A stretch of DNA of 64,000 bases. It comes from Escherichia coli (lineage in GTDB: Bacteria > Pseudomonadota > Gammaproteobacteria > Enterobacterales > Enterobacteriaceae). Location of the stretch: assembly GCF_003790525.1 (NCBI RefSeq), contig NZ_CP033635.1, one strand, 5' to 3'. The position numbers and the translations under genes were made by a program. Below are positions 20,468-27,670 of the stretch, piece by piece; within the stretch, counting starts at the first letter, position 1, and every line of letters begins with the position of its first letter. The notes beneath the pieces were generated by a model. It worked only from the letters and a program-made list of their open reading frames with translations, did not search any database and was not told the origin of the DNA.

Positions 20468-21619
20468 ATGGCAGCTTCAACCTTTTTTATTCCTTCCGTG
20501 AATGTTATTGGTGCTGATTCATTGAATGATGCAATGAATATGATGGCAGATTATGGATTTACCCGTACCTTAATTGTCACCGACAATATGTTAACGAAAT
20601 TGGGTATGGCGGGTGATGTGCAAAAAGCACTGGAAGAACGCAATATTTTTAGCGTTATTTATGATGGCACCCAACCTAACCCCACCACGGAAAACGTCGC
20701 CGCAGGTTTGAAATTACTTAAAGAAAATAATTGCGATAGCGTGATCTCCTTAGGCGGTGGTTCTCCGCACGACTGCGCAAAAGGTATTGCGCTGGTGGCA
20801 GCCAATGGCGGCGATATTCGCGATTACGAAGGCGTTGACCGCTCTGCAAAACCGCAGCTGCCGATGATCGCCATCAATACCACGGCGGGTACGGCCTCTG
20901 AAATGACCCGTTTCTGCATCATCACTGACGAAGCGCGTCATATCAAAATGGCGATTGTTGATAAACATGTAACTCCGTTGCTTTCTGTCAATGACTCATC
21001 TCTGATGGTCGGTATGCCGAAGTCACTGACCGCCGCAACGGGTATGGATGCCTTAACGCACGCTATCGAAGCGTATGTTTCTATTGCCGCCACGCCGATC
21101 ACTGACGCTTGCGCCCTGAAAGCCGTGACCATGATTGCCGAAAACCTGCCGTTAGCCGTTGAAGATGGCAGTAATGCGAAAGCGCGTGAAGCAATGGCTT
21201 ATGCCCAGTTCCTCGCCGGTATGGCGTTCAATAATGCTTCTCTGGGTTATGTTCATGCGATGGCGCACCAGCTGGGCGGTTTCTACAACCTGCCACACGG
21301 TGTATGTAATGCTGTTCTGCTGCCACACGTTCAGGTATTCAATAGCAAAGTCGCTGCAGCACGTCTGCGTGACTGTGCCGCTGCAATGGGCGTGAACGTG
21401 ACTGGTAAAAACGACGCGGAAGGTGCTGAAGCCTGCATTAACGCCATCCGTGAACTGGCGAAGAAAGTGGATATCCCGGCAGGCCTGCGTGACCTGAACG
21501 TGAAAGAAGAAGATTTCGCGGTACTGGCCACCAATGCCCTGAAAGATGCGTGTGGGTTTACTAACCCGATTCAGGCAACTCACGAAGAGATTGTGGCAAT
21601 TTATCGCGCTGCGATGTAA
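20468..21619 (+). CDS. yiaY: iron-containing alcohol dehydrogenase family protein
   Basis: 383-aa ORF; Fe-ADH family features. Confidence 0.9.
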
Positions 21620-21665
21620 TCATCATTCCCACAATGGCTGGCGAGTTGTCAGCCGCTTTTTCAAC

Positions 21666-21743
21666 TATCTCAAAACTTGCTTTTTTTGAGATAGTTTCTC
21701 TTTCCTGCTATATACTATCTCAATATTGCGCTTTTTTGAGATA
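21666..21743 (+). promoter_or_regulatory. two copies of the palindrome tatctcaa(aa)-N8/10-ttttgagata upstream of the Fic gene (candidate operator)
   Basis: Copy 1 21666-21693, copy 2 21715-21743; tatact -10-like hexamer at 21711-21716 between them. Confidence 0.5.
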
Positions 21744-21748
21744 AGCAC

Positions 21749-23044
21749 ATGGCTATCAAATCACCTCCCGGACTTATTCCTTTATCACACTTATCGGGTG
21801 AGGAACTCCTGGCCCACCTGCGCTTTAACCGGGTTACCGATGAAAAAGGACGTTATCTGCCTTTTGATGAGTTGCAGTACCGCATCAAAAAAGGAGAAAA
21901 CGTCGATGTGGCGTGGACGCTTACCCGTCTGGCGCGCAACGCGGCGATCCAACGAATTAATTATTGCAATGAAGCGGGTGAACAGGCCGGATTCAACATT
22001 ACCCCGGTGATTGCAGAAGCGTGCGAGCTTGTCGACAAACGTGCTACCGCGCTGGCGCTGAAAGATCAGACTGAACGGTTACGCGGGGCCGGAGCCGAGT
22101 TAAGCCAGTTACGCCTGGAAGAGCCGATCACCAGCTCCCAGCTGGAGGGTGCGAATACTACAACGCTGGTGGCGAGAAAAATGCTGGAAACAGGGCGGTC
22201 GCCACGCACTGAAGACGAGCATATGATTGCGGGAAATGCCCGGCTGATGGCGGAAATTCCGCACTTACTCGCAGAACCGCTGACACCTGCGCTTATTCGC
22301 CAGTTACATGCCATTGGTATGGGTGGAATCAATGACGCGAAATATCGTCCGGGAGAATTTCGTGAAACAGATGATGTTGTGATCGCCGACTATGATGGCA
22401 ATATAGTGCATCAACCGCCCGCTGCGGCATTGTTACCGGAACGGCTGGAAAAAGTTTGCCAGTGGTTAAACAGCCATGAAGGGTATATTCATCCGTTGGT
22501 CCGTGCCTGCATTCTGCATTTTATGCTGGCCCATGAACATCCGTTTCGGGATGGCAACGGGCGCACCAGTCGGGCGCTGTTTTACTGGTATATGCTGAAA
22601 TCGGGCTACGATGTCTTTAAATATATTTCCATCAGCCGTTTGCTTCATGCTGCACCGGTCAAATATGCCGCCAGCTACCAGTACACTGAATCAGATGGTA
22701 TGGATCTGACTTATTTCCTTGAATATCAGGCGGGTGTCATTAAACGTGCTCTGCAAAACTGGCAGCAGCATATCGATGAAATTACACAACGAAGCGCAAA
22801 ACTCGATAGTGTGCTGTTTAGCTCTGGTGTGCTTAAACGCCTGAATCCGCGCCAGGTAACGCTCCTGAATGTGATGCTCGCCAATCCGGGGAAAGAGTAC
22901 ACAGTTGCTGAAATTAGCGCGAGCCTGGGCGTCTCTGATAATACGGCTCGAGCTGATTTACGGACAATTGTTAAAGAAGGGTTTGCGCAAGAGAAGAAAA
23001 TTAATGACCAGCAAGCCGTGTACTTCGCGCATTATCCGCTGTAA
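21749..23044 (+). CDS. Fic-domain protein (putative AMP-transferase) with N-terminal inhibitory motif and C-terminal HTH-like tail
   Basis: 431-aa ORF with ATG start; Fic motif [12 protein letters not shown] at nt 22538-22573; upstream SSQLEG matches the (S/T)xxxE(G/N) inhibitory motif; C-terminal segment [30 protein letters not shown] is HTH-like. Confidence 0.8.
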
Positions 23045-23151
23045 CCCTTGCCCGTAAATTCGTGATAGCCGTCGTAAAGCTGTTATCGACTGGCGAAGAT
23101 TTCGCCAGTCACGTCTACCCTTGTTATACCTCACACCGCAAGGAGACGATC

Positions 23152-24690
23152 ATGACCAATAATCCCCCTTCAGCACAGATTAAGCCCGGCGAGTATGGTT
23201 TCCCCCTCAAGTTAAAAGCCCGCTACGACAACTTTATTGGCGGCGAATGGGTAGCCCCTGCCGACGGCGAGTATTACCAGAACCTGACGCCGGTGACCGG
23301 ACAGCTGCTGTGCGAAGTGGCGTCTTCGGGCAAACGAGACATCGATCTGGCGCTGGATGCTGCGCACAAAGTGAAAGATAAATGGGCGCATACTTCGGTG
23401 CAGGATCGCGCGGCGATTCTGTTTAAGATTGCCGATCGGATGGAGCAGAACCTCGAACTGTTAGCGACCGCTGAAACCTGGGATAACGGCAAACCCATTC
23501 GCGAAACCAGTGCTGCTGATGTGCCGCTGGCGATTGACCATTTTCGCTATTTTGCCTCGTGTATTCGGGCGCAGGAAGGCGGTATTAGTGAAGTGGATAG
23601 CGAAACTGTGGCTTATCACTTCCACGAACCGTTAGGCGTGGTGGGGCAGATTATTCCGTGGAACTTCCCGCTGCTGATGGCGAGCTGGAAAATGGCTCCC
23701 GCGCTGGCGGCGGGCAACTGTGTGGTGCTGAAACCCGCACGTCTTACCCCGCTCTCAGTACTGCTGCTAATGGAAATCGTCGGTGATTTACTGCCGCCGG
23801 GCGTGGTGAACGTGGTCAACGGTGCGGGCGGAGAAATTGGCGAATATCTGGCGACCTCGAAACGCATCGCCAAAGTGGCGTTTACCGGCTCAACGGAAGT
23901 GGGCCAACAAATTATGCAGTACGCCACGCAAAACATTATTCCGGTGACGCTGGAGCTGGGCGGCAAATCCCCAAATATCTTCTTTGCTGATGTGATGGAT
24001 GAAGAAGATGCCTTTTTCGATAAAGCGCTGGAAGGCTTTGCACTGTTTGCCTTTAACCAGGGCGAAGTTTGCACCTGTCCAAGCCGTGCTTTAGTGCAGG
24101 AGTCTATCTACGAACGCTTTATGGAACGCGCCATCCGCCGTGTCGAAAGCATTCGCAGCGGTAACCCGCTCGACAGCGTGACGCAAATGGGGGCGCAGGT
24201 TTCGCACGGGCAATTGGAAACCATCCTCAACTACATTGATATTGGTAAAAAAGAGGGCGCAGACGTGCTCACCGGCGGGCGGCGCAAGCTGCTGGAAGGC
24301 GAACTGAAAGACGGCTACTACCTCGAACCGACGATTCTGTTTGGTCAGAATAATATGCGCGTGTTCCAGGAAGAAATTTTTGGTCCGGTGCTGGCGGTGA
24401 CCACCTTCAAAACGATGGAAGAAGCGCTGGAGCTGGCGAACGACACGCAATATGGCCTGGGCGCGGGTGTCTGGAGCCGCAACGGTAATCTGGCCTATAA
24501 GATGGGGCGCGGCATTCAGGCCGGGCGCGTGTGGACCAACTGTTATCACGCTTACCCGGCACATGCGGCGTTTGGCGGCTACAAACAGTCGGGCATCGGA
24601 CGCGAAACCCATAAGATGATGCTTGAGCATTACCAGCAAACCAAGTGCCTGCTGGTGAGCTACTCGGATAAACCGTTGGGGCTGTTCTGA
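23152..24690 (+). CDS. aldB: aldehyde dehydrogenase B
   Basis: 512-aa product from ATG at 23152 preceded by aaggag; ORF track extends upstream to 23062. Confidence 0.9.
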
Positions 24691-24721
24691 TATAAGAAGC
24701 TGGTCGCATTGGGTATTCATT

Positions 24722-24803
24722 GCCTGATGCGACGCTTACGCGTCTTATCATGCCTACGGGGACCTGACCGTAGGCCGGATAAGGCGTACACGCCGCATCC
24801 GGC
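24722..24803. repeat. REP/BIME elements downstream of aldB
   Basis: gcctgatgcgacgc... and ...gccggataaggcgtacacgccgcatccggc REP-type palindromes. Confidence 0.7.
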
Positions 24804-25233
24804 ATAAACAAAGCGCACGTTGTTACAATTTACGTTTTAAATCTACGTGCGCAATAACCCAGACTACGCCAACAGAAGTGCGTTTCTGGGGCGTGTTTTG
24901 CCAGGAGTTTAATCTCGCGTTTCGATGGTGAGCGGGCGAACCAGGCCATAAATCACCATTGGCGTTCCGAGGCCAATCAGCAATAAACGGTAGATAATTG
25001 AAGGTTTAATACGCTTAATCTGCATTGTGGATGTTTTACGGTTTTTATTCATAAATTTGGTCAATAGTTACATTATTTCAATATGATAAGCTTCGACCTA
25101 TTGAAAAGCCAGGCACACACTTCAGAAAGTATATAAAAAACCATATGTCGTTATATAAATAAGGAAATTGCACCGCATTATGGTATTTCATAATATGCGT
25201 TAATTGTTCTTTTTTATATTCTCTGAGGGAAAT

Positions 25234-25557
25234 ATGTTCCTGGATTATTTTGCACTGGGAGTGCTTATTTTTGTATTTCTGGTGATCTTCTATGGGATTA
25301 TTATTTTACATGATATTCCCTACCTGATTGCTAAAAAACGTAATCATCCACATGCCGACGCCATTCATGTTGCTGGTTGGGTAAGTCTTTTTACGTTACA
25401 TGTTATCTGGCCATTTTTGTGGATTTGGGCCACGCTTTACCGCCCGGAGCGTGGATGGGGAATGCAAAACCATGACTCCTCCGTTGTGCAACTACAACAG
25501 CGTATTGCCGGGCTGGAGAAACAGCTCGCTGACATCAAATCCTCTTCTGCCGAGTAA
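25234..25557 (+). CDS. yiaW: small inner-membrane protein, DUF3302 family
   Basis: 107-aa product from ATG at 25234 (track start 25204 is TTG); gaggga RBS; close paralog of the yibI product. Confidence 0.85.
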
Positions 25558-25562
25558 TACTT

Positions 25563-26699
25563 ATGGATTTACTGATTATTTTAACCTATGTGGCTTTCGC
25601 ATGGGCAATGTTTAAGATCTTTAAAATTCCTGTAAATAAATGGACCATTCCCACAGCGGCCCTGGGAGGCATATTTATTGTCAGCGGTCTAATTCTGTTA
25701 ATGAACTATAACCATCCGTATACCTTTAAAGCGCAAAAAGCGGTTATTTCTATTCCTGTTGTCCCACAGGTGACAGGCGTGGTGATCGAAGTGACGGACA
25801 AGAAAAATACGCTGATTAAAAAAGGTGAGGTGCTATTTCGACTGGACCCGACGCGTTATCAGGCGCGGGTGGATCGGCTGATGGCGGATATCGTTACCGC
25901 AGAACATAAACAGCGGGCGTTGGGCGCAGAGTTAGATGAGATGGCGGCGAATACTCAGCAGGCAAAGGCCACGCGGGATAAATTCGCTAAAGAGTATCAG
26001 CGTTACGCACGCGGCAGTCAGGCGAAAGTAAACCCGTTTTCAGAACGCGATATCGATGTGGCGCGGCAAAATTATCTGGCGCAGGAAGCCTCCGTGAAGT
26101 CATCGGCGGCGGAACAAAAACAGATCCTGAGCCAGCTGGATAGCCTGGTGTTGGGTGAACATTCTCAAATCGCCAGCCTGAAAGCGCAGCTCGCGGAAGC
26201 AAAATATAACCTTGAGCAGACGATAGTGCGTGCGCCGAGCGATGGTTATGTGACCCAGGTACTGATTCGTCCGGGTACCTATGCCGCGTCGCTGCCGCTA
26301 CGTCCGGTGATGGTGTTTATACCCGATCAGAAACGACAAATCGTGGCGCAGTTCCGTCAGAACTCCTTGCTGCGACTGGCTCCTGGCGACGATGCGGAAG
26401 TGGTGTTTAATGCTCTGCCAGGTAAGGTATTCAGCGGTAAGCTGGCAGCCATTAGTCCAGCCGTTCCCGGCGGAGCTTATCAGTCGACCGGCACCTTACA
26501 GACGTTAAACACAGCGCCGGGTTCAGATGGCGTTATCGCGACCATTGAACTGGATGAGCATACTGATTTGAGCGCATTACCAGACGGTATTTACGCCCAG
26601 GTGGCGGTCTACTCTGATCATTTCAGCCATGTCTCGGTGATGCGCAAAGTACTGTTACGCATGACCAGCTGGGTGCATTACCTTTATCTCGATCATTAA
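25563..26699 (+). CDS. yiaV: HlyD-family membrane fusion-like protein
   Basis: 378-aa ORF; close paralog of the yibH product, same length. Confidence 0.88.
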
Positions 26700-27670
26700 T
26701 CTTCGCTTTCCGCCGCTTGTTCAGGCCGCAGTTGCTGCGACTGAGCAAGCTGGTGGCGAATTTCACGCAGCATTTCATCCAGCACATACTGGACCCGCCA
26801 GGGCTGGTATTCCCGTTTACGGAAGATAGCCACCAGATCCAGCCACCATTCATACGGGTGCTGAAAGCAGGGCACCAGCGTGCCGTCTTGCAGGTCGCTC
26901 TGCACACTTTTGTCTGGCGCAAACACAATCCCCAGGTGATTTCGTGCCAGCTCCAGCGCAGATTGCGTGTTGTCGCAAACGTAATTTCCCTTCACGCGAT
27001 AATCCCGCACCTCTTTACTCCCGGCGACGTTGAAGCGCCAGATATTCGCGTCGTCGATCATCATCGAGTCGATCAAAATACAGGAGTGATGTTCGAGTTC
27101 GTCAGGACGGCTAATGGGATGTTTCTCAAGATAGCGCTGGCTGGCATAAGCGGTTACGGCATATTGGGTAATAAAACTGGCAACCAGCGATTCATCTTTT
27201 GGTTGGGCGTAGCTGATTAAAACATCACAATCATCGGGAAATTCGACGCCTTCATAAAAGGCATTACGCTCAAGATTGCAGGTTTTTAGCGATAAGGTGA
27301 TATCACCGATATCTTTAATTTTATCGATTACATGTTTGGATAAATAGGTAATTATGCCGGTTGGTGCATAGATAGTGACCCGACCACGTTTCTCATGCTT
27401 ATAATCTGCAATAAAATTATTAAGCTGCTCGTTTCTGTCCAGCATGTCGTTGATGTACGGTAACAGCACGGTGCCAAAAGGTGTGAGCATCAGCTGTCGG
27501 GTGGTTCGGTCAAAGACTTTTAAACCCACTTTTGATTCAAAATCAGCAAGATATTTGCTGACGTTGGCCTGTGCGATGCCAAGTACAGTCGCGGCATGGC
27601 TGATATTTTCACTGGCAGCGATTACCGAGATAATTTTTAACTCCCGGTACTTAAGTTGTAATTTTGTCAT
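26696..27670 (-). CDS. yiaU: LysR-family transcriptional regulator
   Basis: 324-aa ORF; N-terminal LysR-type HTH; stop codon overlaps the yiaV stop. Confidence 0.88.

Follow-up and report, generated by a model that had tools for sequence, protein, structure and literature searches.

A stand-alone class II-type Fic gene of Escherichia coli with a predicted winged helix and paired operator candidates, lost from K-12-type genomes

Introduction

The gene considered here, referred to as fic, lies between yiaY and aldB in a stretch of 64,000 nucleotides (hereafter the window) from the Escherichia coli contig NZ_CP033635.1, which is matched by E. coli SMS-3-5 (NC_010498.1) at 100% identity. Its product, named 'Fic family protein' in RefSeq (WP_000985736.1), is probably a stand-alone, self-repressed class II Fic enzyme with the architecture of SoFic, CccR and CbFic2, having an AMP-transferase core, an inhibitory helix and a C-terminal winged helix. 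A reading of the locus made from the sequence only had called this type of module poorly characterised. This does not apply to the architecture, since structures, targets and promoter-binding data are available for SoFic, CccR, CbFic2 and EcSofic (PMC9755527; PMC10628234; PMC12249575; bioRxiv 10.64898/2026.07.09.737422), but it does apply to this particular subfamily, which is without prior study; a literature search found no papers on the WP accessions or on a Fic protein together with aldB and yiaY.

Described relatives and comparison with the locus

SoFic from Shewanella oneidensis (SO_4266/MloA; Protein Data Bank (PDB) codes 3eqx and 3zcn) is likewise a class II protein, possessing an inhibitory SxxxEG helix, the canonical Fic motif and a C-terminal winged helix, and it is encoded, as here, by a stand-alone gene. 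It is considered here together with the single-gene 'SoFic' defence system of Millman et al. (2022); the PADLOC SoFic model (PDLC03963) matches the present protein over residues 96-428 (E 1.2e-43, 147.9 bits, profile positions 30-351 of 361). Besides these similarities, the two superpose with a Foldseek TM score of 0.6-0.7 but share only 17-18% identity, an N-terminal domain of ~85 amino acids is additional here, and the known target of SoFic is EF-Tu. The 100 bp preceding the SoFic start codon are bound by SoFic itself (bioRxiv 10.64898/2026.07.09.737422).

CccR from Yersinia pseudotuberculosis (7xux) has the same architecture, being a dimeric class II Fic protein that carries a helix-turn-helix (HTH) at its C-terminus, with ~18-19% identity to the present protein. 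Its dimer represses its own promoter, where the C-terminal HTH binds an inverted repeat located close to the promoter elements at -35 and -10 (PMC9755527), and it is thus a direct precedent for the operator prediction made below. The CccR operator is a single 10-bp inverted repeat with a 26-bp spacer, while here there are two palindromes with 8-bp arms and 12-bp spacers, placed 50 bp apart. Moreover, CccR is secreted by a type VI secretion system (T6SS), as well as AMPylating FtsZ, whereas fic has no adjacent secretion genes at the inspected loci.

The best match among solved structures is CbFic2 from Coxiella burnetii (CBU_0822; 8cil), found by profile (E 1.2e-23, residues 135-429) as well as by Foldseek. 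It is a bifunctional AMPylase/deAMPylase whose activity is switched by DNA binding via the C-terminal HTH (PMC10628234). Both SoFic and CbFic2 are reversible AMPylases/deAMPylases whose activity varies with their oligomeric state and, in the case of CbFic2, with DNA binding too. CbFic2 differs from the present protein in being described as an effector acting on host histone H3, in binding DNA without a defined operator, and in lacking the N-terminal domain found here.

EcSofic from E. coli H397 is toxic on expression, requiring for this its catalytic histidine H194, dimerisation and the C-terminal domain, and is followed by a 47-aa antitoxin, AS1 (PMC12249575). It is a shorter and different protein, with its catalytic residue at H194 as opposed to H264, and no conserved small open reading frame (ORF) accompanies fic. 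Its structure is probably PDB 9vjc, and the chain presumed to be EcSofic matches distantly (E 9e-08 by sequence, 3e-13 by profile). Regarding the class I modules FicT/FicA (VbhT/VbhA, EcFicT/A) and Doc/Phd, they share the Fic fold and the toxin-like logic, and weak HMM matches to VbhT and Doc are obtained; their inhibitory helix, however, is carried by a separate antitoxin, while here the Fic chain contains its own and has no gene partner.

The fic gene and its product

The genes of the region are ordered selB (18433-20277), yiaY (20468-21619), fic and aldB (ATG at 23152, ending at 24690), so that fic is flanked by spacers of 129 bp towards yiaY and 107 bp towards aldB. The coding sequence is a single intact frame starting with ATG, encoding 431 amino acids (48.4 kDa), the length given by the sequence-only reading (Table 1). 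A total of 2114 homologues of the protein were retrieved and the dN/dS of fic against E. albertii is ~0.07; the ORF is therefore no chance frame, and the gene is under purifying selection.

An antitoxin partner was also searched for. Neither the upstream nor the downstream spacer contains an ORF, both being of insufficient length for a partner, and fic is a stand-alone gene without an antitoxin partner, in agreement with the earlier proposal of a one-gene module resembling toxin or defence candidates, which the PADLOC match also supports. A 50-aa frame with a TTG start that overlaps the 3' end of fic (22905-23057) was considered as an antitoxin and rejected as spurious, having no counterpart in E. 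albertii, Nissle or E105.

The Fic domain matches Pfam PF02661 over residues 177-281 (E 1.7e-19), and the active-site consensus HxFx(D/E)GNGRxxR is found at H264-R275. In a family alignment of 21 sequences, reaching down to 41% identity, the H, F, D, G, N, G, R and R of this motif are invariant, and the canonical motif recognised by the sequence-only reading shows no degeneracy. The upstream segment S129-S-Q-L-E133-G134, which that reading had taken for the inhibitory motif of a class II protein, fits (S/T)xxxE(G/N) and is invariant in the same alignment. A phmmer alignment to human FICD places E133-G134 opposite its inhibitory EG (FICD E234), and on this ground the protein is assigned to class II, with predicted intramolecular inhibition by the N-terminal motif of the same chain.

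An AlphaFold2 model built on the family alignment (pLDDT 87, pTM 0.83) has as its best PDB matches by Foldseek CbFic2 (8cil), SoFic (3zcn, 3eqx), Dde_2494, the Mycobacterium marinum FIC protein and CccR (7xux), with a probability of 1.00 to many Fic structures and superpositions on the Fic-winged-helix proteins of ~350 columns. The family profile is collinear with SoFic to its C-terminus, residues 98-429 corresponding to SoFic 40-356. In the modelled C-terminal region, helices 367-378, 386-393 and 397-409 are followed by strands 413-417 and 423-427; in the predicted recognition helix (397-409), T399 and A400 are invariant and N398 nearly so. The region 346-431 is basic (pI 9.45), with weak Pfam HTH matches (DeoR, HTH_11, IclR) over residues 361-414, and Pfam SoFic-like_C is weak in the family, reaching E<=1e-3 in one of the 21 members and E<=0.1 in five. 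The C-terminal domain is accordingly modelled as a winged-helix DNA-binding fold like that of SoFic, CccR and CbFic2, which agrees with the HTH-like tail noticed previously.

The N-terminal domain, composed of three short helices and a β-hairpin, precedes a long helix equivalent to the N-terminal helix of SoFic, and falls outside all matches to SoFic, CbFic2 and CccR. Modelled separately it reaches a pLDDT of 93, and no known fold was matched. Its occurrences in AFDB50 are mostly at the N-terminus of Fic proteins of 430-500 amino acids. A profile search of 1.84 billion representative proteins returned 545 clusters with this domain (E up to 0.001); among the best 150 of them, the position is N-terminal in nearly all, the full-length members have ~425-530 amino acids, and most proteins that are not full-length look like fragments. 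From these searches the domain of ~85 amino acids appears to be specific to this Fic subfamily, and it is described here for the first time.

Table 1. Positions in the window of the fic gene, its domains and motifs, and the associated sequence elements
Feature	Position	Strand	Evidence
fic-family coding sequence, predicted class II Fic AMP-transferase with C-terminal winged helix	21749..23044	+	ORF list, profiles, model
N-terminal domain, residues 1 to ~85, three short helices and β-hairpin	21749..22003	+	model, profile searches
Inhibitory-helix motif, residues 129-134	22133..22150	+	sequence; family alignment; FICD alignment
Fic active-site motif, residues 264-275	22538..22573	+	sequence; invariant in family; Pfam; FICD alignment
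Predicted C-terminal winged helix-turn-helix, residues ~360-431	22826..23041	+	model secondary structure, weak Pfam HTH, collinearity with the SoFic winged HTH
Distal operator candidate, TATCTCAA-N12-TTGAGATA	21666..21693		exact match; conserved arms; motif upstream of homologues
Putative extended -10, TGcTATATAct	21706..21716	+	read from sequence
Proximal operator candidate, second TATCTCAA-N12-TTGAGATA	21716..21743		shuffle test, repeat scan, cross-genus alignment
Segment missing from K-12-type genomes, 1368 bp	21671..23038		pairwise alignment, junction sequences
yiaY intrinsic terminator, G+C-rich hairpin followed by T-run	21635..21662	+	terminator scan; same sequence in K-12 and PEC011
Perfect 10-bp hairpin GACTGGCGAA-gat-TTCGCCAGTC, no T-run, in the fic-aldB spacer	23088..23110	+	repeat scan; also present in K-12

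Paired operator candidates at the fic promoter

Two perfect palindromes of the form TATCTCAA-N12-TTGAGATA, 50 bp apart, extend across the fic promoter; they are the two exact matches in the window, where none is expected from 100 shuffles of the same sequence. The right arm of the distal one contains TTGAGA (21686-21691), which doubles as a -35-like hexamer, and the putative -10 is located 17 nt beyond it, between both palindromes, with TGCTATA being kept among Escherichia and Pseudescherichia. A consensus promoter scan did not call TTGAGA-17-TATATA because of the position-6 rule of the tool, position 6 of TATATA being A; the assignment of the promoter is thus an inference from reading the sequence and from its conservation. 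The proximal palindrome stops 5 nt before the ATG, so that it covers the predicted transcription start, the 5' untranslated region (UTR) and the ribosome-binding region.

The motif was surveyed at 79 homologous loci, taken from one-genome-per-species contigs, as TCTCAA-N10-14-TTGAGA with at most one mismatch per arm within 220 nt upstream. It is found upstream of the fic homologue at 50 of them, in many genera, with a density 44 times that of the rest of those loci, and symmetry and conservation extend to the flanking T-A positions on each side, which the search pattern did not include. Where two sites are present, 49-51 bp separate them across the loci, with the proximal one mostly starting 25-33 nt before the ATG. 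No difference in the arms is seen among E. coli, E. albertii, Pseudescherichia and Pantoea, in contrast to the spacers and the inter-site stretch, which diverge. The loci without the strict motif have variant palindromes in the same position, and variant arms (ACTCAA..TTGAGT, AACGCAA..TTGCGTT, TTTCAA..TTGAAA) tend to accompany variant recognition helices, a possible covariation.

As the gene occupies unrelated genomic contexts across genera, the palindromes seem to belong to fic and not to its neighbours, and the only DNA-binding domain travelling with them is the winged helix of the Fic protein itself. No further operator-like site occurs in the 64-kb window, the rest of the genome not having been searched. 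Taking together the gene-linked palindromes, the protein's own winged helix and the promoter-binding precedents of CccR and SoFic, it is predicted that the protein represses its own promoter via these palindromes. Dual conserved operators of this kind would be a new feature of the subfamily.

Genomic contexts of the homologues

In other genera the homologues occupy differing loci. One with 70% identity is cargo of a Salmonella integrative conjugative element (ICE), another with 48% identity is on a Klebsiella P4/PICI-like phage satellite element, and those with 37-41% identity are plasmid-borne in Klebsiella, Aeromonas and Vibrio. Phage genomes yielded no full-length homologue, and no secretion-system or immunity genes were seen beside fic in E. 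coli or at the other loci inspected. This mobile-element distribution and the PADLOC match agree with an accessory gene of defence or toxin-like character. The Salmonella ICE contig (L088, 1661-5033) also carries, immediately upstream of its Fic gene, an autotransporter and a pair formed by an AAA ATPase and a subtilisin-like Peptidase_S8, which may be another defence-type cargo.

Proposed mechanism and alternative readings

With considerable confidence, the product can be described at the molecular level as an autorepressed, Glu-inhibited AMPylase that would arrest growth once released. In the proposed mechanism, a dimer would bind each palindrome through its two winged helices; occupancy of the distal site would block the -35 element and that of the proximal site the start site and the ribosome-binding region, keeping the expression of fic low and self-limiting, as experiments have shown with CccR and as has been suggested for SoFic. 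At rest, Glu133 would prevent productive ATP binding, leaving a weak AMPylase and possibly a deAMPylase. The inhibition would then be relieved by a signal, which could be phage infection, a change in oligomeric state or DNA occupancy, or sensing by the N-terminal domain, and the released enzyme would AMPylate an essential cellular protein, leading to growth arrest, for which EF-Tu (SoFic) and FtsZ (CccR) are the precedents. Such an arrest would follow the logic of an abortive-infection or toxin-like module. Regarding the biological role, an anti-phage or abortive-infection function is put forward tentatively, at somewhat less than even chances, and a role in endogenous regulation is possible but doubtful.

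A broader version of the mechanism, which we regard as unlikely, would extend it to a subfamily of ~545 clusters (50% identity) from Proteobacteria, Campylobacterota and cyanobacteria. The N-terminal domain would be a sensor, e.g., of a phage protein or of the nucleoid or DNA state, releasing the autorepressed, Glu-inhibited AMPylase on a target other than EF-Tu or FtsZ; with five helical turns between them, the dual N12 operators would tie the enzyme's activity to DNA occupancy, which would make it a DNA-gated toxin; and the 1.4-kb cassette of operators and gene would move between housekeeping loci without a mobility gene.

Several observations weigh against the reading of fic as a self-repressed, SoFic-type toxin or defence gene. 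Only 17-20% identity is shared with SoFic, CccR and CbFic2, and the NCBIfam SoFic equivalog NF046030 scores 40.2 bits, far under its curated cutoff of 550, and for this reason the protein is SoFic-like, yet no orthologue of the characterised S. oneidensis SoFic. The flanks are metabolic genes with no neighbouring defence genes, and a defence gene would not usually reside for so long, by vertical descent and under strong purifying selection, at a housekeeping locus. In the phylogroup B2 isolate NILS69, the one native host in which an E. coli SoFic was put to the test, removing the predicted SoFic left 10 phages unaffected (PMC12409345), although the identity of that gene with the present fic could not be verified. 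In addition, the distal palindrome has a terminator-like score in the terminator scan and the region 21620-21760 has a predicted folding z of -4.7 against shuffles, so that the palindromes could act also as RNA or DNA hairpins.

The alternative that survives best considers the same molecule as a housekeeping-type reversible (de)AMPylase and transcription factor, which would tune an endogenous protein, e.g., in translation or cell division, under stress or in stationary phase instead of acting against phages. It draws on the metabolic neighbourhood, on the NILS69 result with the reservation just given, and on a vertical inheritance beside aldB that predates the split of E. coli and E. albertii, combined with the low dN/dS. 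The intact inhibitory Glu is moreover the residue that supports deAMPylation in FICD, both SoFic and CbFic2 are bifunctional, and SoFic has been proposed to regulate transcription and translation. Nevertheless, fic is dispensable, being absent from ~71% of complete E. coli genomes, K-12 included, its homologues are carried by ICEs, satellite elements and plasmids, the PADLOC SoFic model matches it, and the window offers no other operator-like site (the rest of the genome was not searched). On balance this alternative seems rather unlikely.

It is highly improbable that the protein is a secreted interbacterial effector or intercellular regulator, which like Yersinia CccR would be exported (e.g., by a T6SS), poison competing cells and, within kin cells, act as a repressor of its own promoter. 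The architecture and the autorepression logic are those of CccR; against this stand the low identity to it, the lack of adjacent secretion-system or immunity genes in E. coli and at the other inspected loci, an operator made of two N12 palindromes in place of one N26 palindrome, and the extra N-terminal domain.

There is likewise very little probability that the palindromes are only RNA or DNA hairpins, working as terminators or as attenuators that sequester the ribosome-binding site, with the C-terminal domain merely regulating the enzyme as reported for EcSofic. The terminator-like score and the strong folding mentioned above would suit such hairpins, as would the symmetric substitutions in a relic palindrome of the fic-less strain PEC011 and the control of toxicity by EcSofic's C-terminal domain. 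But the arm sequence itself is conserved in γ-proteobacteria, cyanobacteria and Campylobacterota with a loop fixed at 12 nt, the distal site is upstream of the -10 and overlaps the -35-like hexamer, and CccR and SoFic provide the precedent of promoter binding.

Loss of fic in K-12-type genomes

The sequence-only reading had stated that yiaY and aldB are adjacent in K-12, which is indeed so, with a spacer of 164 bp and no fic at the locus; its estimate of about 1.4 kb of extra DNA corresponds to 1368 bp absent from K-12 in the alignment. Its description of this DNA as inserted has to be reversed, since the position of the gene in E. albertii, the aldB-like dS, the relics in the empty sites and the lack of mobility genes point to a loss in K-12.

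In E. albertii, a 95% identical protein is encoded directly upstream of aldB; the contig begins 90 bp upstream of fic, leaving yiaY beyond reach. Between E. coli and E. albertii, dS is 0.27-0.33 for fic and 0.37-0.40 for aldB. The K-12 junction reads TATCT|CTGTAA, with a TATC microhomology at both ends of the 1368-bp segment, and retains as relics the left half of the distal operator as well as the terminal codon of fic with its stop. Another empty allele, that of strain PEC011, amounts to about one-tenth of genomes as judged from an evenly spaced listing and has the whole distal palindrome and a further TATCTC joined to the same TGTAA. Around the segment, neither direct repeats nor terminal inverted repeats, integrase, insertion sequence (IS) or mobility genes were found. 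Taken together, these comparisons show that fic stood beside aldB before the split of E. coli and E. albertii and was later deleted in the K-12-type lineage. An older acquisition in the ancestor of Escherichia is possible.

In PEC011 (L003, 760-800, compared with 21663-21696 of the window), the relic palindrome CTCTCAA...TTGAGAG shows matching substitutions in both arms relative to TATCTCAA...TTGAGATA, so that the inverted repeat is kept without fic; it may act as a hairpin or terminator after yiaY.

The gene is carried by 1572 of 5426 complete E. coli genomes (~29%, in a collection that is a biased sample of the species), always on the chromosome, and every record inspected places it between yiaY and aldB. 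O157:H7, Nissle 1917, NC101 and NRG857c are among the carriers, and K-12, BL21 and O111:H8 among the non-carriers, a pattern that we take to follow the phylogroups, B2, E and F having the gene and A and B1 lacking it.

Recent acquisition of fic as a single-gene island, by insertion between yiaY and aldB, would account for the absence from K-12, for a GC content (50.8%) slightly lower than that of aldB and selB and for the differing loci in other genera, but this can hardly be credited given the E. albertii gene directly upstream of aldB with a dS similar to that of aldB, the constant chromosomal locus of the carriers, the missing direct repeats, integrase and IS, and the operator and stop-codon relics, which only a deletion explains.

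Two further variants were observed. E. coli DETEC-P836 (NZ_CP116103.1) has an ISEcp1-blaCTX-M-55 unit with a wbuC fragment inside fic (locus L087, 3001-6878; ~22626 on the fic of the window), a chromosomal extended-spectrum β-lactamase (ESBL) insertion that leaves fic as two pseudogene pieces. In a Logan assembly (P0098, 503 aa), Fic residues 1-168 are fused in frame to the C-terminal two-thirds of AldB, with the join at a shared ...LMA..., corresponding to ~21749-22252 of the window joined to aldB; this may be another deletion allele or else an artefact of assembly.

Neighbouring features

An Rfam search found no known RNA in the fic region. The hairpin in the fic-aldB spacer lacks a T-run and is also present in K-12, and it is therefore part of the aldB leader/promoter region and not of the fic module. 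Just 3' of aldB, at 24680-24853, there are three overlapping sub-threshold matches to the Rfam family naRNA4 (RF02564), with 33-39 bits against a gathering score of 59.5, which look like a cluster of REP/BIME-type repeats. The following aldB-yiaW spacer holds on the minus strand, at ~25012-25155, a RefSeq hypothetical protein of 47 amino acids (WP_001039208.1), the sequence there, upstream of yiaW, being AT-rich (~31-37% GC). In SMS-3-5 and K-12, aldB is followed by yiaW-yiaV (window 24900-26700 compared), while in Nissle 1917 (L084, 4789-4895) an araD/sgbE-like L-ribulose-5-phosphate 4-epimerase gene on the opposite strand comes right after it; thus, the region 3' of aldB is polymorphic too.

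Significance

Apart from its operators and N-terminal domain, fic adds a divergent member to an architecture for which structures, targets and a defence annotation are already available, and its interest is modest, its value being mainly that of a clean, testable system. As K-12 (and BL21) lack the gene while ~29% of complete genomes carry it, K-12 is a natural null background in which toxicity, autorepression, targets and defence could be tested with the native 1.5-kb fragment. The conserved operator pair makes a directly testable DNA-binding prediction for a SoFic-type winged helix, considering that for SoFic only a 100-bp promoter fragment has been shown to be bound. Finally, the history of the locus in E. 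coli is corrected to a loss in K-12-type strains, and not a gain in SMS-3-5.

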